This document shows, one piece after another, positions 2,882 to 14,133 of a stretch of DNA of 64,000 nt; position 1 is the stretch's first letter, and every line of letters starts with the position of its first letter. Both the position numbers and the translations under genes were made by a program. The DNA comes from Candidatus Bathyarchaeota archaeon (GTDB lineage Archaea; Thermoproteota; Bathyarchaeia; Bathyarchaeales; Bathycorpusculaceae), in assembly GCA_963768425.1 (NCBI GenBank), contig CAVYHV010000022.1, positions 40,326 through 104,325 on the forward strand, written 5' to 3'. Under the pieces are notes generated by a model that searched no databases, had not been told where the DNA came from, and saw only the letters and a list, made by a program, of their open reading frames with translations.

Positions 2882-3961
2882 TTGCCTAAAAACTACACTT
2901 ACACCGACGCGGGCGTAAACCGGCAACAACGCGTCGAGTCAAAAAAAGTCCTAAAAGACCTGCAGGAAACCTACAAGCATAGCCACTTCGGAAACGTGAT
3001 GCGCCTGCCATATGGCAACATCTTTCCAGTTGGAGAAAACACCTTTTTAGACCTTGTTATCGAAGGAGTGGGCACCAAAGTTCTTCTGGCACAGATGGCG
3101 GGGAAATATGACACTATAGGCGTTGATGCGGTGGCGATGGCGGTGAACGATGTCATCCGTTCAGGAGCAAGACCACTTGCAATAGCCGACAACATTCACG
3201 CGCAAGCCAGCGAACCACGCCTCGTAAGAGAGTGGCTCAAAGGAATCATTCAAGGCGCTGCAGAAGCAGAATGCCCAGTTACAGGCGGCGAAACAGGTGA
3301 CGTCGCAGAAATAATAAAGGGTCTTGTCGACAACGCCGGCTTTGATATGGTCGTTGCCTCGGTCGGCACGGTTGAAAGGGAAGAAATCATCACTGGTGAA
3401 AACATCAAGCCAGAAGACCCAGTAATCGGCTTACCAAGCAGCGGATTGCATAGCAACGGTTTAACAATGGTTAGAAAAATCCTGTTCAAGCAGTGGGGAG
3501 GAAAATACATGCCGAACGATATTCCGGAAGGTTTGGAGAGGGAAGTCGTGCTTGAAACGTTGGAGCCGACAAAAATCTATGTAAGGCCGCTTCTCAAAGT
3601 AGCGAAAAAGGTCAAAGTCAAAGCGGCAGTCCACATAACCGGCGACGCCTACATGAAATTCAACAACTTGGCAAATTATTCGCCGGGAATAGGCTTCGAA
3701 TTTACCAACTTCAAACCGCAACCTATCTTCGCACTAATCCAAAAAACCGCATCCGAACTAGGCTACTGCATTTCTGATGAGGAAATGTTCAAAACCTTCA
3801 ACATGGGATGGGGCTTCGGAATAATCGTTGATAAATCTGAAGCTGACAAAGCCATGAGCATGCTAGAGCAAGAAGGCGCAAAGCCTGAAATTATAGGCAA
3901 AGTGACAGGGAAACAAAATGTTGAAATAAAGCACAAAAACAAAAAGCTTGTTTTGACGTAA
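2882..3961 (+). CDS. purM: phosphoribosylformylglycinamidine cyclo-ligase (AIR synthase)
   Basis: YTDAGV, EGVGTK, AMAVND, GGETG, SSGLHSNG, HITG and TFNMGWG motifs. Confidence 0.95.
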   Translation: MPKNYTYTDAGVNRQQRVESKKVLKDLQETYKHSHFGNVMRLPYGNIFPVGENTFLDLVIEGVGTKVLLAQMAGKYDTIGVDAVAMAVNDVIRSGARPLAIADNIHAQASEPRLVREWLKGIIQGAAEAECPVTGGETGDVAEIIKGLVDNAGFDMVVASVGTVEREEIITGENIKPEDPVIGLPSSGLHSNGLTMVRKILFKQWGGKYMPNDIPEGLEREVVLETLEPTKIYVRPLLKVAKKVKVKAAVHITGDAYMKFNNLANYSPGIGFEFTNFKPQPIFALIQKTASELGYCISDEEMFKTFNMGWGFGIIVDKSEADKAMSMLEQEGAKPEIIGKVTGKQNVEIKHKNKKLVLT

Positions 3962-4020
3962 AGTTTTGCGTTTTTTATGTCGAAAGCGTTTAAATCTTGA
4001 AGCATAATTTAAAGAATTTT

Positions 4021-4269
4021 ATGAAATACCGAGCGAAAATCGAAGTAAGCCTCAAACCAGGCCACAGCAACCCTGAAGGAGAAACAACAGCCCGTCTGCT
4101 GAAGGAACTCGGCTACAAAGTAGAAGCTGTGGAAGTAAGCAAACTCTACATAGTCTCGCTTGAAGCTCAAACGGCTAAAGAGGCAAATGCCAAGGCGGAA
4201 GAAATGAGCAAACGGCTCCTCGCAAACCCAACCAAAGACAACTACACCATCATCCTTGAGGAGCAATAA
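4021..4269 (+). CDS. purS: FGAM synthase subunit PurS
   Basis: 82 aa with LKPGHSNPEG and LLANP; abuts purL. Confidence 0.92.
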   Translation: MKYRAKIEVSLKPGHSNPEGETTARLLKELGYKVEAVEVSKLYIVSLEAQTAKEANAKAEEMSKRLLANPTKDNYTIILEEQ

Positions 4270-6653
4270 TGAACTCTAACATTTTCCACCCATGCAAAAC
4301 AAATTATGCTCTCTACGAAGCAGTCTTAAAAGAAGCTAGCGATCAGCAACTCGCCGAACTCAATAATGAATTGGCCTTGGGATTGAGCCTTGAAGAAATG
4401 AAAAGTATCCAAGACTACTTCAAAGCAGAAGGCAGAAACCCAACTGACGTGGAGCTTCAAACCATCAGCCAAACATGGTCCGAACACTGCTACCACAAGA
4501 CCTTCAAAGGAAAAATCCTTCTCGACGGCAAAGAAATCGACAGCCTCTTCAAAACCTACATTGCAAAAGCGACCAAACAAATCAAAGCACCTTGGTGCTT
4601 TAGCGTCTTCGAAGACAATGCAGGCATCGTCCGCTTCGACCTTGGCTACGGCATAGCCGCAAAAGTCGAAACCCATAACCACCCCTCTGCCGTAGAACCC
4701 TTCGGCGGAGCAGCCACTGGAGTCGGCGGCGTAATCAGGGACATATTAGGCGTGTGGGCTGATCCGATCGCATGCACAGACGTTTTAGGCTTTGGACCGC
4801 TCGATTACGATTACAACAAACTTCCGGCAGGCGTGAAACATCCCAAGTACGTTTACATGGGCGTCACCGCGGGCATAAGCGCCTACGGAAACAACATGGG
4901 GATTCCAACAGTCAACGGAGCAATTTACTTTGATGAAAGCTACACAGGCAACGTCACCGTATACTGTGGATGTATAGGACTTCTTCCCCTTGCAAAATTT
5001 ACAAAAAATGCCAAGCCAGGGCACATTTTGGTTTTGGCAGGTGGAAAAACTGGACGTGACGGTATTCACGGCGTAACATTTGCCTCAGCGGAATTGACTG
5101 AGAAATCTGAGGAAATTTCTCGACCGGCTGTCCAAATTGCCGATCCAATTGAAGAAGAGAAAGTGAAAAGGGCGATAATTGATATTCGCGATCTTCAACT
5201 TGCTTCCGCGACAACTGACCTTGGCGGAGGGGGATTATCATCGGCGGTAGGGGAAACAGCGGAGCGGTTCAACTGCGGAGTAACCATCGACCTCGCCAAG
5301 GTGCCGCTGAAGCATATTGGTTTGGCTCCGTGGGAGGTTTACATTTCAGAATCCCAAGAAAGAATGCTCATAACGGTTCCTCCTGAAAACCTGGAAAGGG
5401 TTATGGAGGTTTTTGAAAAAGAAGACGTGGAAGCAACGGCAATTGGCAAACTCACAACTGAACGTCGTCTGAAACTCAATTTTAACGGCGAAAAAGTTGG
5501 TGACATGGATATGGCATTCCTGTTTAATCCATGCAGCAGCATGAAAACAGCCAGCATCGAAACTCAAACATTCGTCGAACCCCAATTTCCTGCTCCCGAG
5601 AGCTTCACCGATACTCTGCTTCAGTTGCTTGCCGCGCCTAACATCGCCAGCAAAGAAAGCGTCATACGCACATATGACCATGAAGTTAAAGGTAACACGA
5701 CACTAAAACCTCTTCAAGGAGTGTACGCTGGACCAAACGATGCCGCCGTACTCAAACCGCTTGACAATTCATGGAGAGGTCTCGCGATTTCCTGCGGCAT
5801 GAACCCGAATTACGGCAAAATTGACCCATACTGGATGGCGGCTTCCGCGATTGACGAGGCGGTTAGAAACAACGTTGCTGTTGGGGGAAGAAGGATCGCT
5901 TTGCTTGATAATTTCACTTGGGGTAACCCTGAGAAGCCAGAGCGTTTAGGCTCATTGGTTCGGGCTTGTGAGGCATGCTATGATTTCGCCGTCGAGTTTA
6001 AGACGCCATTTATCTCGGGAAAAGACAGCTTATACAATGAATCCCCGATGGGTCCCATAACGCCCACACTGCTAATTACAGCTGTAGGCATAGTTCCCAA
6101 CCTTCAATTCGTCACTTCTATGGATCTGAAGTCGCCAGGTAACTTGCTTTACATTGTAGGCGAAACCTTCAACGAACTCGGAGGCTCAGAATACTACAAG
6201 CTCAAGGGCTACTTGGGATCAAGCGTTCCAAAAGTTAAAGGCGCCAAAGCCAAACGCACATTCAGAGCAGTAACCAAAGCCATAGATTCAGGCTTAGTCA
6301 GGTCATGCCATGACCTCTCCGAAGGTGGGTTGGCGGTCGCGGCTGCGGAGATGGCGTTTGCGGGCGGCTATGGTTTGAACTTGGATTTATGCAAGGTGCC
6401 TGGCAAAGGTCTGGAGCGCAACGATTTCGTGTTGTTTTCTGAGTCGAATAGCCGATTCCTGCTGGAAGTGTCAGAGCGGGACAAAGAAGACTTTGAGGCA
6501 AAAATGAAAGATAAGCCCTTCGCTCAAATCGGCACGGTCACTAGGGAAGAGCGGCTTGTCATTAACGGGTTGGGCAAGAAAATGGTTGTCGACGCTTCAA
6601 TTGCAGAGTTGCGGAAAAGCTGGAAGAAAACGTTCGGGGTAGAAACAAAATGA
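4269..6653 (+). CDS. purL: FGAM synthase subunit PurL
   Basis: WSEHCYHK, KVETHNHPS, GGAATGVGG, DLGGGGL, SESQERM, SGKDSLYN and HDLSEGG motifs. Confidence 0.97.
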   Translation: MNSNIFHPCKTNYALYEAVLKEASDQQLAELNNELALGLSLEEMKSIQDYFKAEGRNPTDVELQTISQTWSEHCYHKTFKGKILLDGKEIDSLFKTYIAKATKQIKAPWCFSVFEDNAGIVRFDLGYGIAAKVETHNHPSAVEPFGGAATGVGGVIRDILGVWADPIACTDVLGFGPLDYDYNKLPAGVKHPKYVYMGVTAGISAYGNNMGIPTVNGAIYFDESYTGNVTVYCGCIGLLPLAKFTKNAKPGHILVLAGGKTGRDGIHGVTFASAELTEKSEEISRPAVQIADPIEEEKVKRAIIDIRDLQLASATTDLGGGGLSSAVGETAERFNCGVTIDLAKVPLKHIGLAPWEVYISESQERMLITVPPENLERVMEVFEKEDVEATAIGKLTTERRLKLNFNGEKVGDMDMAFLFNPCSSMKTASIETQTFVEPQFPAPESFTDTLLQLLAAPNIASKESVIRTYDHEVKGNTTLKPLQGVYAGPNDAAVLKPLDNSWRGLAISCGMNPNYGKIDPYWMAASAIDEAVRNNVAVGGRRIALLDNFTWGNPEKPERLGSLVRACEACYDFAVEFKTPFISGKDSLYNESPMGPITPTLLITAVGIVPNLQFVTSMDLKSPGNLLYIVGETFNELGGSEYYKLKGYLGSSVPKVKGAKAKRTFRAVTKAIDSGLVRSCHDLSEGGLAVAAAEMAFAGGYGLNLDLCKVPGKGLERNDFVLFSESNSRFLLEVSERDKEDFEAKMKDKPFAQIGTVTREERLVINGLGKKMVVDASIAELRKSWKKTFGVETK

Positions 6654-7472
6654 AGCAGGAAGAAATCAAAGCCTGTGTCATGCGCGTCGGCGGAACCAAT
6701 TGTGACGCTGAAACACAGCGAGCTTTCCAAGAGTTAGGCATTCAGGTTGATGTCCTGACACGTAAACGAACTGGTGAAACTGCATAACCTACTTGATTAT
6801 CAAGTGCTGATTTTCCCAGGCGGCTTCTCTTTTGGAGATTACGTGCGTTCAGGTGTAATTTTTGCAAGGCATCTTAGCGCGAAGTTAGGCAAAGAAATGG
6901 AAACGTTCATCGACGAAGGCAGACCAATTCTGGGTATATGCAACGGCTTCCAAATAATGGTTGAATACGGTTTGCTACCGGGATTCAAAGGTGTAAGTTC
7001 ATATCCAGAAGCCACATTGACGACAAATGAGCCTGCAGGCTTCAAGTGCCAGTGGATTTACCTTAAACATGAAAACCGCGGAAAATGCGCCTTCACAAAT
7101 AAAATCGCTCCTAACAAAGTGCTTCGAATGCCTATTGCCCATGGGGAAGGCCGGTTGCTTTTCCCGAAAGAAAAAGAGGAAGCGTTGCTGGCAGAACTCG
7201 TCGAAAACGACATGGTTGTTTTCCGTTATTGCGACAATGACGGCAACGTCGCCGACGGAAAATACCCAGTTAACCCAAACGGGTCATTCTACGACATCGC
7301 TGGCATATGCAACAGAGAAGGTAACATATTCGGACTGATGCCTCACCCAGAAAGAGCCATGTTCTGGTGGCAGCAACCCGATTGGACGCAACAACAACAG
7401 ATGCCTCACTACGGGGATGGAAAACTAATCTTCCAAAGCATAATCGATAGACTAACCAAAAAATGCCCTTAG
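6650..7472 (+). CDS. purQ: FGAM synthase glutaminase subunit PurQ; apparent +1 frameshift near 6758
   Basis: ATG overlaps the purL stop and reads MKQEEIKACVMRVGGTNCDAET. The downstream frame has PGGFSFGD, GICNGFQ, AHGEG and MPHPER. Confidence 0.93.
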
Positions 7473-8369
7473 ATCTTCTGAAGAAGGCAAACCCGCGCGA
7501 GCACCCATCTGCGCGACGCATCTTGAAGCAACAAAATTGCCGAAGCGCCCGCATTCGAACAGGCTTTTCTCTTTGATTAATCCGTAAAGAAATCCAGCGC
7601 AGAAAGCATCCCCTGCACCAGTTGTGTCGACTACTTTAACTTTGAAAGGCTCAATTCTCAGCCTTTCCTCCCCATCCGTGACGTAGCAGCCCTTTTCCCC
7701 GAGCTTGACCGCGACAATTTTGACTCCTGCATCAAGCATCAAATCTGATGCTCTGCGGATATCAGGTTCTCCGGTTAAAAGTTCAAGTTCGCCAATATTT
7801 GGCATCAAAATGTAGGAGCTTCGAATTATCGGCTCTATAGCCGCAAAACCTTTCTGTGCATACAATGAACCAGGGTCAAAGCTGATTTTGACATTTGTAC
7901 TTAATGCGCCTAAGAGCTTTTTTTGCGCCCGAAAAGATTTCTCACCAACAAAGGATGAGTAATGCAGAAACTTCGTTTCAGAGGGGTATGTGTAATTGAT
8001 TTCCCGAGGCTCAATCGTGTCGTTGACGCCCGGATTGACGTATAGTGCTCTTGCGCCTTTCTTGTCTACGAATCCTAAGACTGAACCGCTTTTTCCATGC
8101 TTAGCCTGAATTATACCTGCCGTGTCGACTCCTTCAGTTTTGAAACAGTCAATTTGCAGTTTGCCTTCCCTGTCATCCGCCACTTTTCCGATGAAGCCAA
8201 CTTTGCAGCCTAGTCTTGCTAACCCAACTGCAGTGTTGGCCGCTGAGCCGCCGCAGGATTCCTTGTAATCTTCAACGAAGCTTTCTTCCTCCGCGCCAGC
8301 CAATCGTTCAACTTTCAGAAGGGTATCAACGTTAAGCGCGCCGAAACCTACAAAATCAAATTTTGTCAC
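7452..8369 (-). CDS. PfkB/ribokinase-family kinase (EhaT-like)
   Basis: GGSAANTA, SFDPG, VKLGEKG and DTTGAGDAF signatures. The start overlaps the ftr-like stop (GTGA). Confidence 0.9.
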   Translation of the reverse strand: MTKFDFVGFGALNVDTLLKVERLAGAEEESFVEDYKESCGGSAANTAVGLARLGCKVGFIGKVADDREGKLQIDCFKTEGVDTAGIIQAKHGKSGSVLGFVDKKGARALYVNPGVNDTIEPREINYTYPSETKFLHYSSFVGEKSFRAQKKLLGALSTNVKISFDPGSLYAQKGFAAIEPIIRSSYILMPNIGELELLTGEPDIRRASDLMLDAGVKIVAVKLGEKGCYVTDGEERLRIEPFKVKVVDTTGAGDAFCAGFLYGLIKEKSLFECGRFGNFVASRCVAQMGARAGLPSSEDLRAFFG

Positions 8370-9274
8370 GAAAATAACTCCTTCAAGTTAATTTTGTGAT
8401 CGCCCAATTTGCCGCCGTAGTTTCCCGCGGAAACCTTCATCATCCCATCAACATCAAGCACAGCTTCGATTCCTACCTTGGTTGCCCGCTTTACCGCGTC
8501 TAAAGAGACCCCGTTAAAGACTATTTCGGCTATGTAGCCCACGCCGTCGGGCACAAGGGATTCTTTGCCCAACTTCTTCTTAAGGGATGGACAGTAAAGG
8601 TGATTTGTAGTGGGTCCAATCTTGGGAAAATGGGTTTCTGGTTTAGAACCCGCTGAGCAAACATCGAAGGGTGTGACAACGCCAGACAATTCGTGTATTG
8701 CAACTAAGGCTTTCTCACCCGCAGACTTTAGAGCTTGTTTGGTTTTACAAAGAACCCAAAAATTGCCGCCCATAACCCCGCGAGCGTAGCCAAGGTAACG
8801 TTCAATCACGAAGTCTGGAACCATCAATGGAACCACGATTACTTCTCTACCGAACCGTTTTTCAACCCACTCATAACCATCGCCGCAGTGTCCAACAGTC
8901 TCCATCAGGTCCAGTTTGCCCTCAGGGTTTGGCAGGGCATCATAGACGGCAGTGAAGGGCTTAACTAAGATGTCTTGGCGGATGCGGTAAGAAAGTTCAG
9001 TCTCGAATTTCTTTACGGATTGTTCAAAGGTTTTTTTAGGGTTGATTTCTCCCCAGAACTGCAGCAGCACACCCAAGCGTTGGTCTGGGGTTTCCTTTTG
9101 ACTGAGATATCTTTCAACTCCGCCCTCTGTTCTGCCGATTACAACAGAAGGGGTTGCCGTCGAATCCTCAGCCGCCTTACGCAGGGTTTCCTCGTCGTCG
9201 GCGGTAACAATTACACGACAAAAAAGTCCAGTAAAAGCCTCAGCGTACGTGTCATCTATCTCCAGTTTCGCCAT
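8366..9274 (-). CDS. ftr: formylmethanofuran--tetrahydromethanopterin formyltransferase family protein (possibly an Ftr paralogue, EhaS-like)
   Basis: IDDTYAEAF, TEGGVE, TPDQRLG, RIRQDIL, GHCGDGYE, GVMGGNF, SAGSK, EIVFNG and SAGNYGGKLG motifs. Confidence 0.9.
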   Translation of the reverse strand: MAKLEIDDTYAEAFTGLFCRVIVTADDEETLRKAAEDSTATPSVVIGRTEGGVERYLSQKETPDQRLGVLLQFWGEINPKKTFEQSVKKFETELSYRIRQDILVKPFTAVYDALPNPEGKLDLMETVGHCGDGYEWVEKRFGREVIVVPLMVPDFVIERYLGYARGVMGGNFWVLCKTKQALKSAGEKALVAIHELSGVVTPFDVCSAGSKPETHFPKIGPTTNHLYCPSLKKKLGKESLVPDGVGYIAEIVFNGVSLDAVKRATKVGIEAVLDVDGMMKVSAGNYGGKLGDHKINLKELFS

Positions 9275-9275
9275 A

Positions 9276-10358
9276 TCACCCGAGTTTCCCAACTGCTACT
9301 CCTCGCACTTTCTTTCTAAACTCGCTACTTTCTTTTATTAGTATTTCCATGTTTTGGTCTGTCACTATTTTCGCTTTGGGCAACGCATCAGGATACAACT
9401 GCGAAAGCTGTTTGAGCAAAGAAGAGTCAACTTCGCTGTTGTTGAGGATTTCGTAACTCCAACCTTGAAGAGTATTGAGAGCTTTTTCTTTCCCGAATCT
9501 GCAGAACAAATCTGCAATAACAGCTGTGACAAGGCTACTTTCTGACAAAACCGCGACTTCGGCGTTTCTAACAGCATACCCGTTGCCGTTGAAGGAAACT
9601 GTTAATCCGCCGCTCTCGCGCACCAGCCTGAAGGCTTCCACGTCGGTGATGCTGTCACCAACGTACAAAACTTCTGATAGTTCTGAGCCCAAACGTTTCA
9701 CTGTATCTCGAATTGCCTCAGCCTTTTGTTCCCCACCGACGGTTACGATGTCTGTGAGGAATTTGCCGACGAACATCTTTGGGATTAAACTCCAGAAGAT
9801 CTCATCCAAGCGTTTGATAGCTTCTTGATCAACAAATGAGAAATCTTCGATGGTTCTTGCAGATGCAGAAATATCTATTAAGGGCATTTTTGCGATTTCT
9901 TGGGCTACCTGTTTTAGGCGGTCTTTTTCGTGGGGGGTGATTCCGCATTTGTCGAGTTTAAGTTTGGTGCAGTAGGTATTTTTGTATGGGAAATCTGTGG
10001 CTTTGCAGAGTGCTTTGATGTAGTGTTCGTAGCTGGTGCTGACGATGAATGCGTCGGCGATGTCTTGCACATGGTTTATTGTGGTTTGGCTGTTGGCGAT
10101 TAGGAGAATGTTGTCGGCGGAGAACTCGTCCATCTGCTTGTCTGAGAGGCTGTACGCTTTGAAAAAAGGCAAAATAAGCTTCAGAGTGCTTCCAGCGGAG
10201 TAGCACGGTTTGTGCAGAACATCAGCAAGCACGTCGTCGTACTTGCTTATGTTTGTGAATAGCTTGTCGCCGTTGGGAATAAAATTCGCGGCTAACTCGA
10301 AGGCATTATCGTTTTTGCTTATTGGTCCCTCGCAGTCGGAAATGAACACACGTTTCAC
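9276..10358 (-). CDS. HAD-superfamily phosphohydrolase (COG4030/EhaR-like)
   Basis: Motif I variant FISDCEGP, IVSTSYEHY, K in GEQKAEA, motif IV YVGDSITD and SFNGN. The start overlaps the purD stop. Confidence 0.82.
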   Translation of the reverse strand: MKRVFISDCEGPISKNDNAFELAANFIPNGDKLFTNISKYDDVLADVLHKPCYSAGSTLKLILPFFKAYSLSDKQMDEFSADNILLIANSQTTINHVQDIADAFIVSTSYEHYIKALCKATDFPYKNTYCTKLKLDKCGITPHEKDRLKQVAQEIAKMPLIDISASARTIEDFSFVDQEAIKRLDEIFWSLIPKMFVGKFLTDIVTVGGEQKAEAIRDTVKRLGSELSEVLYVGDSITDVEAFRLVRESGGLTVSFNGNGYAVRNAEVAVLSESSLVTAVIADLFCRFGKEKALNTLQGWSYEILNNSEVDSSLLKQLSQLYPDALPKAKIVTDQNMEILIKESSEFRKKVRGVAVGKLG

Positions 10359-11770
10359 GCTTTGCCCCTCAAACTCTCCATGTGCCTGACCGCTTTAGCG
10401 ATATGCTGCTTTGAGGCGACATCAGTTCGGCTCCACAACCCGCCGCCACTGATTGCCCGAGTACCTTCAAGGCTTATGCTGCGTGCTTCCTCGATGTTCG
10501 CCCCTATGCCTAAAACACCAACGGCGCGGGATTTGAGCGCGAAGTTTTTGCCATCCCTCGTCTCCATCGAGCCGGGGTAGACGCGGATACGGTTGCCGTA
10601 TTTCTTAGTGAGTGCCTGGGCTTTCGACAGATCAACTGAAGTGTTAGCCTCCTCCTTGTTGGCTTTGTTCGGGAAGGCTTCCGCGTAGCCTCCGTACTCA
10701 AGCGGGACTTTATATGTTAAAACTGACGCGGCATTCTCCATTTTGACGCTTGTCAAGTTTCCTTCTATCATATTGAAGCAGACGTCGACAAAGTCGTCTT
10801 TGATTAGCGCGAGAAGATTGATGATTTCTGGATCTCCTGGGCGACTGTTGTTCTCGAGAACTTTGATACCGTGGCCTGTATGCATAAAGGCAAGGTAGAG
10901 CGGGATACCTCTAAGGGCGGAGTCATCTTTGATTTTGGCTTTCCATCCTTTGAAAATCTTATTGGCCAAGGTGAGCTCCTCTTCGCGTTCAGCCGCAGTT
11001 AGAAAAGGCATTTTGTCGTCAATGTCCTTGTATGAGCCCATGCCTCCCGTGTTCGGGCCACGGTCGTCGTCAAAGGCACGTTTGTAATCGCGCGTGTCTG
11101 GAAGGGCAACGAAATGCTTGCCATCGCAGAACGCCATGAAACTGGATTCTTCCCCATCAATTTTCTCTTCGATTATTACGCTGCCATACCTGAAGTTGGA
11201 CATAAAATGCTCAAAAAGTTCCCCGCGGTTAGCGAAATGGTCGCCCCAAACGCCCACACCTTTCCCAAGTGCCGGTTTATCAGGTTTAACGACAGCCTGA
11301 TTATCAAGTTCATCAAGCCAACGCCAAACAGCGCCCTTAACATCTCCAGATTCCTTGTACTCAGTGGGGCTGAAAACTTTGAACCGCGGGTTTGCTTCCG
11401 GCGCAATCTCGTCGAAAAGGACGCGCTGCTCCACTTTGCTTACTTCTATGGCGTACTGTTGCTTTGGGCAGATAACGGGTATGCCTGTTGATTTTTCAAT
11501 TTGGTCGCGGACGCCGTCTATTATGGGTTTTTCTGACCCGACCAGGACGAAGTCGATTCTGTCTTTGTTTGCTTGGGCGAATTTGCATATCTCCTTCACA
11601 TCAAGGCTAGGGATAACGGCGTGTTTTGAAGCTTTCTCAGCATTGTAGGAGTTGCGTTGTTTATCAGCGATATAGAGTTCCACTTGGTAACGTGTGCTTT
11701 GCAGCAACGCGTCGACCATGGCGACCTCTCTTGCACCGTAAGAAATTACGAGTACGCCTATTTTCTCCAT
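10355..11770 (-). CDS. purD: phosphoribosylamine--glycine ligase
   Basis: GARE, VVKPD...GKGV, IEEKIDGEE, DYKRAFDDDRGPNTGGMGS and ENNSRPGDPE motifs. Confidence 0.93.
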   Translation of the reverse strand: MEKIGVLVISYGAREVAMVDALLQSTRYQVELYIADKQRNSYNAEKASKHAVIPSLDVKEICKFAQANKDRIDFVLVGSEKPIIDGVRDQIEKSTGIPVICPKQQYAIEVSKVEQRVLFDEIAPEANPRFKVFSPTEYKESGDVKGAVWRWLDELDNQAVVKPDKPALGKGVGVWGDHFANRGELFEHFMSNFRYGSVIIEEKIDGEESSFMAFCDGKHFVALPDTRDYKRAFDDDRGPNTGGMGSYKDIDDKMPFLTAAEREEELTLANKIFKGWKAKIKDDSALRGIPLYLAFMHTGHGIKVLENNSRPGDPEIINLLALIKDDFVDVCFNMIEGNLTSVKMENAASVLTYKVPLEYGGYAEAFPNKANKEEANTSVDLSKAQALTKKYGNRIRVYPGSMETRDGKNFALKSRAVGVLGIGANIEEARSISLEGTRAISGGGLWSRTDVASKQHIAKAVRHMESLRGKA

Positions 11771-11817
11771 AATGGTTACACCTGTAACTGCAAGCGGCAA
11801 GAAGGTTGAGGGTTGTG

Positions 11818-13302
11818 CTATTCTTTGGGTTGGGCTTCCTCGGTTTCATAGATTCTTGATTTTTCCTCGTAGCCTTCAAGGAACCTCTTTTTCATAGCGT
11901 CAGCCATCTTTTGAGCACAGGGCGTTGGGTACTTGCCTGTGATGCAGGCCATGCATAGTTCATTTTCTGTTTGACCTGTCGCCTTGATCAATTCTTCAAT
12001 CGACTGATAGCACACTCTGTCTGCACCGATGATTTTGGCGATTCCTTCTGCATTGTGCTTGGAACCGATGAGTTGCCCGTAAGTTGACATATCAATGCCA
12101 TAGAAACAGGGGCCAATGATTCTTGGGAACGTGACGAATACATAGACTTTTTTGGCTCCTGCCTTTCGGAGCTTGTCTATTATGACTTTTGTCGTGTCTC
12201 CCCGGACTATGCTGTCCTCGGTTATTATGACTCGTTTTCCGTCTACTTTGGAGCCTAGAATGTTGATTTTCTTGTCGATTGTTGAGAACCGCTCGGTGTT
12301 AAGAAGTATAAACGCGCGTTCAGTTACGTAGCGGTGCCGTCTGGAAGCCCGCTCCCATCGCAGTCCTGAGGCTTCATGGACTCCCATAGCGGGGTCGTCG
12401 CCTGTCTCAGGCACGGACAGGATTATGTCGCTGTCTTGAACCACCTCTGGAAACTCGCGAACGATGTTCCTCCCAAAGTCCTCGCGGATTTCATAAACAT
12501 ATTTGCCGTCAAACCTTGAATCTGGCCTAGCAAAATAAGCATATTCAAACGCACAAAAAGCTGGACGAGGCTTCTCGATGAGTTGCATGCGTTTGAATCC
12601 GTCTTTTGAAGCAGTAACCAACTCGCCTGGGTTCAGTTCGAAGTCCCGTAAAAAGCTGTTCATGTCTAACCCAACAGTTTCAGAGCAGAATGCAAACGTT
12701 GCTCCTTGCGGGTCGTGCCCAGCGCAAAGGGGTTTTATTCCGTGAGGGTCTTTGAAAGCGAAAAAGTCGCCGTCGCCCGTCAGCCCAGTTACGGAGAATG
12801 CGCCGTCAAGGCTTTCCATAACGGACTTAACCGCTGATGCCAAGTCTTTTCCCTGTTTAAGTCCCAGGAGCAGTTTGTGGCAGACGACGTCTGAGTCGCA
12901 GTTGAAGTAGAAGTCAGAGAAGTTTTCAGTCATTTCTCTTTTGAGAGGCAACGTGTTGACGATGTTGCCGTTGAATGACAAAGCTAGTTTTATGTTGCCT
13001 GAGGATGCATAGACCGGCTGAGTGCCTTCGACGATTGAAGTGTCGTCGCATTTGCCTGAAGTTGTGTATCGCACGTTGCCGATGCCTACTGGACCGGGCA
13101 GACGGTCAAACCATTCATGTATCGCCTCATTTCTGAGGCGGGGAACTAAATCGAGGCTTTTGTAAACGTGAAACTTGTTGTCGTAGGTTAAGAAGCCGTG
13201 GGATTGGTGTCCTCGATGGTTTTGGGCGCGGAGACCCCAATATACATATGGGAAGACCGTTTGGTTTTCAAAGTTTTTTGCTCCGAAGATACCGCAGCCT
13301 AT
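11818..13302 (-). CDS. purF: amidophosphoribosyltransferase; the frame extends upstream of the ORF call to (I)GCGIFG with no canonical start codon
   Basis: CGIFG nucleophile, QNHRG, GNVRYTTSG, FNGNIVN, CAFEYAYFARPDS, EDSIVRGDT, PCFYGIDM and CMACITG motifs. Confidence 0.93.
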   Translation of the reverse strand: MGCGIFGAKNFENQTVFPYVYWGLRAQNHRGHQSHGFLTYDNKFHVYKSLDLVPRLRNEAIHEWFDRLPGPVGIGNVRYTTSGKCDDTSIVEGTQPVYASSGNIKLALSFNGNIVNTLPLKREMTENFSDFYFNCDSDVVCHKLLLGLKQGKDLASAVKSVMESLDGAFSVTGLTGDGDFFAFKDPHGIKPLCAGHDPQGATFAFCSETVGLDMNSFLRDFELNPGELVTASKDGFKRMQLIEKPRPAFCAFEYAYFARPDSRFDGKYVYEIREDFGRNIVREFPEVVQDSDIILSVPETGDDPAMGVHEASGLRWERASRRHRYVTERAFILLNTERFSTIDKKINILGSKVDGKRVIITEDSIVRGDTTKVIIDKLRKAGAKKVYVFVTFPRIIGPCFYGIDMSTYGQLIGSKHNAEGIAKIIGADRVCYQSIEELIKATGQTENELCMACITGKYPTPCAQKMADAMKKRFLEGYEEKSRIYETEEAQPKE

Positions 13303-13510
13303 CTTTTGTCCCTTCTCGCCTTGATTGGGGATGTAAGTGAAAAAAGGGGTTTATCAGCTTTTAGTACATATTTAGCTCAAAAGCATGGCTTTTTGACATT
13401 TTTAAGGTTTAAAGTAAACAAGAAGCGGGAAGTGTTTTTTGGGCGTAGAATTTTGTTGTTTGTGTTTTGAGCTGGATTCTTGATTTAGGCTTTGAGGCGT
13501 TTGCAGATTG

Positions 13511-13590
13511 CGACTCAATTTGACTCTGTTTGACTCCTTGTGACTCCTAACGACTCCAAACGACCCAATTTGACTCTAATTGACTCCAAG
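13511..13590. repeat. eight tandem 10-bp units with a conserved YGACTC core
   Basis: cgactcaatt tgactctgtt tgactccttg tgactcctaa cgactccaaa cgacccaatt tgactctaat tgactccaag. Confidence 0.9.
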
Positions 13591-13734
13591 TCCTTGGCCT
13601 GGTTTCAAAACCAAGACGCTCATGCATCTCACAGAGAAAGTAATGTTCACATTGCAAGCTTCAGAAGCGCCCGCGTGCACCTTTGACAGAGATTAGGTTT
13701 CCGAACGTGAAAACACGCCTTTCAAGTATGAAAG

Positions 13735-14133
13735 TTATTTCTGCATGTACTCCAGCAAACCGAAGTGATTGCCTTCAGGGTCCAGCGCCAGTGCCCACCA
13801 GCCTAACCCGGGAATCTCCATCTTAGGCACAATAATTTTGCCGCCTAACGCCTCCACCTTCTTGCTGTATTCCTCAACTGATTCCACTGAAATGTAGTTC
13901 GTTGGCTTAGCCACCTCAGGCATAGAAGAGTCTTTCCTATTGTATAATCCGCCGTTGACTCCAGGTCGGATAGGCATCATTGTCTTTCCATCCACGGGAA
14001 CAGTCCCCACAAGATAGTAGGTTGTCGGTCCAGGGTATTTTTCCATTTTCCAACCAAACAAATCAACATAAAACTGCTTTATCTTCTCGATATCGTTGGC
14101 TGGAATCTCAAAATGCACAATCGTATGATCCAA
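13735..14133 (-). CDS. VOC/glyoxalase family protein
   Basis: IVHFEIPA, FYVDLFGW, GVNGGL and DPEGNHFGL motifs. Confidence 0.88.
   Translation of the reverse strand: MDHTIVHFEIPANDIEKIKQFYVDLFGWKMEKYPGPTTYYLVGTVPVDGKTMMPIRPGVNGGLYNRKDSSMPEVAKPTNYISVESVEEYSKKVEALGGKIIVPKMEIPGLGWWALALDPEGNHFGLLEYMQK

Follow-up and report, generated by a model that had tools for sequence, protein, structure and literature searches.

A HAD-like, Ftr-like and PfkB-type gene module as a candidate for step 3 of purine biosynthesis in Bathyarchaeia

The DNA analysed here is a stretch of 64,000 nucleotides from Candidatus Bathyarchaeota archaeon (assembly GCA_963768425.1, contig CAVYHV010000022.1, positions 40,326 to 104,325 of the forward strand), and this whole stretch is referred to as the window. 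It contains a cluster of pur genes in which purD is followed by three further genes: one for a protein of the haloacid dehalogenase (HAD)-like type, one for Ftr2, a paralogue of the formylmethanofuran:tetrahydromethanopterin (H4MPT) formyltransferase Ftr, and one for a kinase of the PfkB family. Comparison of sequences and gene orders makes it quite probable that these three proteins perform step 3 of purine synthesis, the conversion of glycinamide ribonucleotide (GAR) to formylglycinamide ribonucleotide (FGAR), and makes the trio a strong candidate for the missing archaeal step-3 enzyme. The complete proposal is put forward more tentatively, with somewhat less than even confidence: the trio would serve as step 3 in those archaea that use H4MPT and methanofuran and have neither PurN nor PurT, and would do so by way of a dephosphorylated riboside. 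A preliminary description of the window had named the Ftr-like protein as the likely step-3 formyltransferase, and every computational check run on this idea (absence of the known enzymes, a second ftr gene, the clade of this copy, and a complementary distribution) supports it as the predicted function.

The archaeal pathway of purine synthesis has had a recognised gap at GAR formylation since the survey of 2011 (PMC3261824). In its account, two Archaeoglobi, four species listed under Methanomicrobiales, and M. kandleri have a pathway that is otherwise complete and no purN or purT; the species named belong to Methanothermobacter, Methanosphaera and Methanobrevibacter, and M. thermautotrophicus is given as a purine prototroph. 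This bears out the statement of the preliminary description that both genes are absent from several archaea using H4MPT. A paper of 2022 (PMC9012536) describes the enzyme as still unidentified in Archaeoglobales and Methanobacteriales, and ANME-1 (one of the anaerobic methanotrophic lineages) as having neither PurN nor PurT. Ftr2 is treated there as an uncharacterised paralogue, and the groups credited with it are ANME-1, ANME-2a, ANME-2b, Archaeoglobales, M. kandleri and Methanothermobacter. According to these two sources, the lineages reported without PurN and PurT (Archaeoglobales, Methanobacteriales, M. kandleri and ANME-1) are those reported with Ftr2. In the passages of PMC9012536 that deal with them, the gap and the paralogue are described separately and are not connected; the Bathyarchaeia operon connects them. 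No paper joining Ftr2 or EhaS to GAR formylation was found, in a search outside of which most subscription journals lie, and an earlier publication is therefore possible.

Organization of the pur cluster

Open reading frame (ORF) and family profile searches place purF, purD and the genes of the HAD-like protein, Ftr2 and PfkB on the minus strand in this order, facing purM, purS, purL and purQ on the plus strand. The features are the following.

9276-10358, minus strand: HAD-like protein, 360 aa; AF1437/'EhaR' family, generic HAD Pfam matches weak
8366-9274 (longest ORF to 9292), minus strand: Ftr2, paralogue of Ftr; PF01913 and PF02741
7452-8369, minus strand: PfkB kinase, 305 aa; PF00294, 188 bits
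10355-11800, minus strand: purD, step 2, GAR synthetase; GARS_N/A/C domains
11818-13074 from the first canonical start, frame continuing to ~13302, minus strand: purF, step 1, amidophosphoribosyltransferase; 418-aa ORF
2882-3961, plus strand: purM, step 5; TIGR00878, 263 bits (above the cut-off of 236)
3997-4269, plus strand: purS, step 4; TIGR00302, 64 bits (above the cut-off of 39)
4269-6653, plus strand: purL, step 4; TIGR01736, 697 bits (above the cut-off of 526)
6650-7472, plus strand: purQ, glutaminase subunit for step 4, convergent with PfkB; the 232-aa ORF from 6774 has 281 bits on NF002252

The genes for PurD and the HAD-like protein overlap by GTGA (10355-10358), one nucleotide lies between the HAD-like stop codon TGA, which ends at 9276, and the ATG of Ftr2, which begins at 9274, and the genes of Ftr2 and PfkB overlap again by GTGA (8366-8369). 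The gene order and the three junctions given in the preliminary description are confirmed by this reading of the sequence. The longest ORF of Ftr2 opens at an in-frame TTG at 9292; its relatives have 302 residues, and hence the ATG at 9274 is the probable start. The PurD of the window reaches 235 bits on TIGR00877, under the cut-off of 288, and represents a divergent subtype that accompanies the module.

Gene content of the host genome

The host genome (G000) is a metagenome-assembled genome of the Bathyarchaeia with a size of 2.96 Mb, 33 contigs and a completeness of 91.3%. Searches with PF00551 (the PurN/Fmt-type domain) and TIGR01142 (PurT) revealed no GAR transformylase in the pur cluster or elsewhere in the assembly: PF00551 has 0 matches, and the best TIGR01142 match reaches 52.7 bits against a cut-off of 502. 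The absence that the preliminary description had noticed in the cluster is therefore found for purN and purT in the assembly as a whole. Two tandem PurP-type genes (PF06973, 229 and 251 bits; G000:C6:102410-104049) are present, and PurH1 was not found in the assembly. Thus, the second formylation of the pathway appears to be covered by a formate-dependent enzyme, and step 3 alone is left without a gene.

The second, canonical ftr for which the preliminary description had suggested a search is located on another contig. This protein (Ftr1) scores higher on the Ftr model than the copy in the window (189 versus 152 bits). The genome also encodes FwdA (790 bits), Mch (360 bits) and MfnB of methanofuran synthesis (264 bits), and therefore both formyl-methanofuran and formyl-H4MPT are plausible formyl donors. 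At ~1.1 kb from the intact mch lies a short Mch-like fragment (G000:C9:122611-122775), interrupted by two TAA stops in frame.

Distribution in Bathyarchaeia and other Thermoproteota

The distribution was assessed in a class sample of 121 evenly drawn Bathyarchaeia genomes, with the HAD-like protein, PF00551, PurT, PurD, the Ftr-like protein and PfkB as queries. A purD gene is present in 96 of the 121, and these genomes divide as listed below. The tally is corrected for one 'PurT-like' match (genome G001), which proved to be PurK at 466 bits and was taken out of the PurT count.

Ftr2 and HAD-like gene, without PF00551 or PurT-type match: 41 of 96
PF00551 only: 32 of 96
PurT-type only: 12 of 96
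HAD-like gene and PF00551, without Ftr2: 4 of 96
Ftr2 fragment only: 1 of 96
No step-3 candidate gene: 6 of 96

Among the purine-synthesising Bathyarchaeia sampled, Ftr2 occurs only where the known GAR formyltransferases are missing, and the module is the sole step-3 candidate in 41 of the 96. Neither a PF00551 match nor a PurT-type gene occurs in any of the 45 Ftr2 genomes of the sample, and the HAD-like gene is found in module genomes only. The profile of the trio against purN and purT, which had been proposed in the preliminary description, is thus complementary across the 121 genomes. The remaining 25 genomes have no purD; 19 of them contain none of these genes, three contain PF00551, and three contain Ftr2 and the HAD-like gene on short or odd contigs. 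The 32 PF00551 proteins include canonical PurN (TIGR00639, 153-247 bits) and longer PurN-like proteins of 96-100 bits, which is below the cut-off, with PurN still their best family. The presence pattern follows families, and there are also mixed ones: family f10 has all three solutions, and f20 has Ftr2 and the PurN-like type. In a wider set of 301 Thermoproteota genomes, the HAD-like family occurs in 40, all of which are Bathyarchaeia, and in 0 of the 257 genomes of other classes.

The PurD proteins of the class sample fall into two score classes on TIGR00877. Those encoded beside a HAD-like gene have ~206-270 bits, under the cut-off, while most of those in PurN or PurT genomes exceed 300 (for example G008:C44:81601-82944 versus G111:C22:4919-6175). 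Exceptions are G031, with 397 bits beside a HAD-like gene, and family f14, with ~245 bits, a PurN-like gene and no HAD-like gene.

The place behind purD

It is important to compare the position of the trio with that of the known enzymes in sister lineages. The genes purF, purD and purN are contiguous in three PurN-type Bathyarchaeia (G037, G099 and G063), with folD next in two of the three, and the PurT-type genome G016 has the order purF-purF-purD-purT. The place directly behind purD thus has three alternative occupants, namely PurN, PurT and the trio. The preliminary description had assigned the trio to the slot of PurN and PurT, and the sister lineages support this assignment more strongly than was expected there. 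The PurT of G016 (locus L144, G016:C53, 3466-4869) has 467 residues and 472 bits on NF006766, the model being matched in two stretches around an insertion.

The genes for PurD, the HAD-like protein, Ftr2 and PfkB stand together in all 20 module loci fetched, which come from 11 families. The HAD-like gene lies within 125 nt of purD in 41 of 45 genomes and within 200 nt of Ftr2 in 40 of 44. A contig scan covered the best 80 of 550 relatives, all of them Bathyarchaeia and close kin rather than independent cases; the HAD-like gene adjoins Ftr2 in 80 of these 80 loci, 79 show purD and 77 PfkB, and the shortfalls are at contig ends. The arrangement of the trio is not a product of chance. Its neighbours are pur genes in 80 of 80 and 20 of 20 Bathyarchaeia loci, with no hydrogenase genes alongside. 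The HAD-like protein of Bathyarchaeia is consequently not encoded with eha genes, as would be expected of a subunit of the energy-converting hydrogenase A (Eha).

The Ftr2 protein

Ftr2 is clearly a member of the Ftr family (PF01913, 150 bits; PF02741, 178 bits; NF002554, 334 bits against a cut-off of 297). On TIGR03119, the equivalog for formylmethanofuran:H4MPT formyltransferase, it has 229.4 bits and stays below the cut-off of 292.6. Two groups of matches can be distinguished in the 121 genomes. The Ftr2 matches have at least 49% identity to the window copy and, if full-length, at least 265 bits, and they nearly always adjoin a HAD-like gene; the Ftr1 matches do not exceed 44% identity and 213 bits, lie elsewhere in the genome, and occur in the majority of genomes, whether these have the module or not. 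In a quick tree of 21 Ftr2 and 21 Ftr1 sequences, the two groups are reciprocally monophyletic, with long stems and similar internal divergence. The window copy lies in the paralogue clade, as the preliminary description had suggested it might, and by this sequence evidence it is not orthologous to the canonical Ftr of the one-carbon (C1) pathway.

Ftr2 aligns over its full length with the Ftr structures 1M5H, 1M5S and 1FTR and is predicted to have the same two-lobe fold as canonical Ftr (1FTR/2FHJ, 1M5H, 1M5S), with 33-41% identity to the Ftr1 proteins of Bathyarchaeia. Fifty-six columns conserved at 90% or more are common to Ftr2 and Ftr1, among them the glutamate of the 'EIV.NG' motif; E256 of Ftr2, in 'AEIVFNG', aligns with the glutamate of 'YEIVING' in 1M5H. 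For the counterpart of this residue in FhcD, Glu252, PMC6926001 describes a role in stabilising the oxyanion while a formyl group is passed to an amine. The two groups differ in 18 columns that are conserved differently, in a 9-residue insertion and in a 2-residue deletion. They also differ in their setting, since Ftr2 is located in the pur operon and not in a C1 context. No PF00551 or PurT-type domain was detected in any protein of the trio by family profile searches. If the trio is a GAR formyltransferase, it would represent a third class of this enzyme, homologous to neither PurN nor PurT.

The HAD-like protein

The HAD-like protein belongs to the family of AF1437 from Archaeoglobus fulgidus, the structure of which was deposited as that of a 'hypothetical protein' (PDB code 1Y8A). 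AF1437 is matched by profile A2 with 210 bits (E 3.8e-61) and has the same D-x-E-G-P motif I. Many homologues carry the JGI product name 'energy-converting hydrogenase A subunit R'. In the window protein, motif I (D-C-E-G-P), motif II (STS), K212 and the G-D-S-I-T-D motif are all intact, and residues D8, E10, K212, D235 and D239 are invariant in the Bathyarchaeia alignments A2/A4.

For the family as a whole, proteins of 300-420 residues were counted. The catalytic motifs, with the D-x-E form of motif I, are intact in 215 of 254 members; of the 39 counted as lacking D8, nine are truncated at the N-terminus and not substituted. Approximately 30 of the 254 members have lost the nucleophilic Asp and usually also the first Asp of motif IV, but they keep K212 and D239. 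These proteins (P0209, P0236, P0243/P0298, P0250, P0255, P0258 and P0259, and also P0155 and P0335-P0367) form two clades, one of Methanomassiliicoccales and one environmental, and they are probably pseudo-enzymes. A search from P0155 returned environmental sequences only and no named EhaR of the Methanobacteriales.

The PfkB kinase

The nearest solved structures to the module PfkB are ribokinases, but on the ribokinase equivalog TIGR02152 it reaches 171.7 bits, well under the cut-off of 299.65. It shares its fold with RbsK and with the nucleoside and aminoimidazole-riboside kinases. The segment 'DTTGAGDAF', with the GAGD anion hole and the catalytic Asp, aligns with 'DTIAAGD' of RbsK (residues 249-255), which ends at the catalytic D255. 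Of the other RbsK residues, N14, D16 and N46 have counterparts in the module kinase; the position of K43 holds Ser in all 25 sequences, and 24 of the 25 lack E143. Presumably, the loss of these two residues is to be expected in a kinase that acts on a C1-substituted ribofuranose.

In the class sample, orthologues with at least 286 bits were found in 39 genomes, every one of which has Ftr2. The PfkB proteins of four modules with a PurN-like gene (described below) have 175-186 bits, and the best match in any genome without the HAD-like gene has 141 bits. Since no such genome exceeds this value, the module PfkB is not the housekeeping ribokinase, and its restriction to module genomes is a further difference from RbsK.

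Displacement of Ftr2 and fusions of the HAD-like domain

Four genomes (G002, G010, G034 and G028) have the HAD-like gene without Ftr2 and contain a PurN-like gene of 278-330 residues instead. G034 and G028 show the arrangement purF-purD-[PurN-like]-HAD-PfkB-FolD, and G034 also has PurH1 alongside. The best NCBIfam family of the PurN-like gene of this type is PurN, with 74.5 and 50.9 bits, both below the cut-off. The module PurN-like proteins keep N106, H108 and D144 (E. coli PurN numbering), while the loop G11-S12-N13, which we take to be the binding site of the GAR phosphate, is changed to D-x-(A/D). Every aligned stand-alone PurN-type protein keeps G-[ST]-N, one with Asp in place of Asn.

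The HAD-like domain is also found fused to other formyltransferases. Protein P0177 joins it to a PurN-like protein with 52% identity to the module PurN-like proteins, and P0182 and P0202 join it to an ATP-grasp domain of 540-600 residues, the best, though weak, NCBIfam match of which is PurT and which is 37% identical to the PurT of G016 (BLAST). These fusions, together with the gene linkage, tie the HAD-like protein to formyltransferases of three folds, all apparently of the GAR type. A search for longer proteins with the HAD-like query gave no further fusion; it is a weak test, since P0182 and P0202 were missed by it as well.

A frame of 604 residues in G081 (locus L116, G081:C1, 5393-7207) was considered as a possible PurD-HAD fusion and rejected, its N-terminal part being an FAD/NAD-binding and 4Fe-4S sequence joined to a partial HAD-like protein. 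The C-terminal two thirds of the HAD-like protein are present in this frame, which Ftr2 and PfkB follow immediately. The single-contig genome G081 gave no purD match at E <= 1e-30.

Proposed mechanism

In the proposed reaction, the formyl donor would be N5-formyl-H4MPT or formyl-methanofuran and the formyltransferase would be Ftr2. The acceptor would be the primary amine of the glycinamide moiety, and Ftr2 would use the oxyanion-stabilising glutamate of canonical Ftr. If the module performs step 3, the chances that it works through the dephosphorylated riboside are, in our estimate, about even. In this route, the HAD-like enzyme would first strip the 5'-phosphate from GAR, the resulting glycinamide riboside would be formylated by Ftr2, and the kinase would re-phosphorylate the product to FGAR. 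One ATP would be consumed, which is equal to the cost of PurT.

In favour of the riboside route, the three genes behave as a unit in inheritance and in replacement. Other features also make it plausible. The stand-alone PurN and PurT need no such partners. The putative phosphate loop G-S-N has been swapped in the PurN-like proteins of the module, the residue pattern of PfkB fits, and the HAD motifs are preserved in the large majority of the family. Furthermore, the gene order purD-HAD-Ftr2-PfkB matches the order of the proposed reactions.

Several observations weigh against the proposal. The removal and restoration of a phosphate looks wasteful, and there is no thermodynamic need for it with 10-formyl-folate or with an ATP-dependent partner. 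Motif I of the HAD-like protein is D-x-E and not the D-x-D of HAD phosphatases, and the members without the nucleophile cannot be phosphatases. The roles given to PurN loop 11-13 and to K43 and E143 of RbsK are putative, and the evidence for the function of the trio is comparative throughout. With regard to the distribution, the assembly of the host is 91.3% complete, and the absence of PurN and PurT from this single genome alone is therefore not proof. Six purD-positive genomes contain no step-3 candidate at all. Because the complementarity is structured by family, the independent changes are far fewer than the genomes, and the displacement by a PurN-like gene counts as one event, not four, since the four cases form one well-supported clade on the tree of the HAD-like protein. 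Outside Bathyarchaeia, the exclusion of PurN is not strict, ANME-2a and ANME-2b being reported with both PurN and Ftr2 (PMC9012536). Finally, purQ, a step-4 gene of the window, is apparently frameshifted.

Alternative explanations

It is a serious, if somewhat improbable, alternative that Ftr2 formylates the ribotide GAR itself, the HAD-like protein and the kinase being accessory to it as a phosphate-binding, GAR-presenting or regulatory partner and in the salvage of leaked ribosides. The evidence that links the module to step 3 fits this explanation equally well. GAR has an amine-CH2 head and an anionic tail that resemble methanofuran, and dephosphorylation would not be chemically required. 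The two clades that have lost the nucleophile and retained K212 and D239 point to binding and not to catalysis, and the fusion of the HAD-like domain to formyltransferase domains is also consistent with it. However, an accessory role does not easily account for a kinase that is tied to the module as tightly as Ftr2 and outlives the swap to the PurN-like enzyme, nor for the stand-alone PurN and PurT of sister lineages, which need neither partner. The loss of the G-S-N loop in the module PurN-like proteins and the invariance of the HAD catalytic residues in Bathyarchaeia also argue for the riboside route.

A role of the trio unrelated to GAR formylation is improbable. Here, Ftr2 would be a C1 isoenzyme or an enzyme acting on a cofactor precursor, the HAD-like protein and PfkB would serve ribose or PRPP (phosphoribosyl pyrophosphate) supply or cofactor synthesis, and an unrecognised enzyme elsewhere would carry out step 3. 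In Methanothermobacter, the homologues are co-transcribed with Eha hydrogenase genes and not with pur genes, according to PMC3087415; the joint report of PurN and Ftr2 in ANME-2a/2b and the score of Ftr2 above the NF002554 cut-off for Ftr could be read in the same way. Against this stands the presence of Ftr1 in most Bathyarchaeia, with the module or not, which indicates that neither the C1 pathway nor its cofactors depend on the module; H4MPT or methanofuran biosynthesis was rejected as the role of the trio for this reason. The module also tracks purD, excludes PurN and PurT, fills their slot, and has given way at the same position to a PurN-like gene next to FolD and PurH1, and its PfkB is missing from the PurN and PurT genomes, as a housekeeping ribokinase would not be. 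It is most improbable that the trio merely salvages or repairs dephosphorylated purine intermediates, for instance glycinamide riboside from uptake or from the action of stray phosphatases, in the manner of the PfkB-type aminoimidazole riboside kinase of Salmonella, which rescues a purine-pathway riboside: the module kinase does look like a kinase of 1-substituted ribofuranosides, but a salvage route would not exclude PurN and PurT, would leave the purD-positive module genomes without any step-3 enzyme, and has no place for the HAD-like phosphatase.

Comparison with known systems and implications

PurN, the 10-formyl-tetrahydrofolate-dependent enzyme (EC 2.1.2.2), converts the amine of GAR to FGAR, as is proposed for the module, and occupies the slot after purD in sister Bathyarchaeia. 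Its fold and cofactor are unrelated to those of Ftr2, which has the FTR/FTR_C fold, and PurN acts alone whereas Ftr2 is always accompanied by the HAD-like protein and the kinase. PurT is the step-3 alternative in folate-free archaea and is found in the same slot in G016; it is an ATP-grasp enzyme that uses free formate, whereas the module would use a carrier-bound formyl group.

The trio of Methanothermobacter, EhaR, EhaS and EhaT, lies at the end of the eha operon, and that of Bathyarchaeia in the pur operon; the two are likened here by description and product names. The preliminary description had stated that the same three proteins are encoded there; the Ftr-like EhaS and the ribokinase-like EhaT are supported by the text of PMC3087415, and EhaR is identified as the probable HAD-like member from the JGI product names of homologues.

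If the module does perform step 3 as proposed, nucleotide synthesis would be tied directly to the H4MPT/methanofuran C1 pool. It is tentatively suggested, again at rather less than an even chance, that many H4MPT archaea (Bathyarchaeia and, by homology, Archaeoglobales, Methanobacteriales, Methanopyrus and ANME-1) obtain purine C8 straight from the carriers of the Wood-Ljungdahl pathway or methanogenesis through a three-enzyme, ATP-driven riboside shunt, in which the phosphatase and kinase would form a portable scaffold for Ftr-like, PurN-like or PurT-like formyltransferases. The euryarchaeal part of this suggestion is based, by homology, on published descriptions, JGI product names and the PDB entry of AF1437. 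A shunt fed by the C1 pool would also account for the seat of the trio behind the eha genes, since Eha presumably replenishes the formyl-methanofuran drained by biosynthesis. The proposal, if true, would give a function to EhaR, EhaS and EhaT and to the structural-genomics protein AF1437, and it would correct the metabolic reconstructions from genomes in which Ftr2 is routinely annotated as a catabolic formyltransferase.

Additional observations in the window

The 418-residue ORF of purF has 283 bits on TIGR01134 (cut-off 350) and covers model positions 71-432. Upstream of it, the frame is open to ~13330 and contains CGIFG, without any ATG, GTG or TTG ahead (window 13072-13392, minus strand). 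The translation of purF probably starts at a non-canonical codon, for example ATA at 13302-13300, or the start is otherwise unusual.

The ATG of purQ at 6650 overlaps the stop codon of purL (ATGA), and the first 36 residues are in another frame than the rest, with an apparent shift of 1 nt near 6757 in comparison with intact relatives. Either the assembly is wrong by 1 nt at this point, or this step-4 gene truly carries a frameshift. A scan of positions 6600-13800 for promoters and terminators, made with bacterial consensus patterns, gave sites no more numerous than in shuffled sequence. Upstream of purF, at 13735-14133, the window encodes a protein of the glyoxalase/bleomycin-resistance fold.

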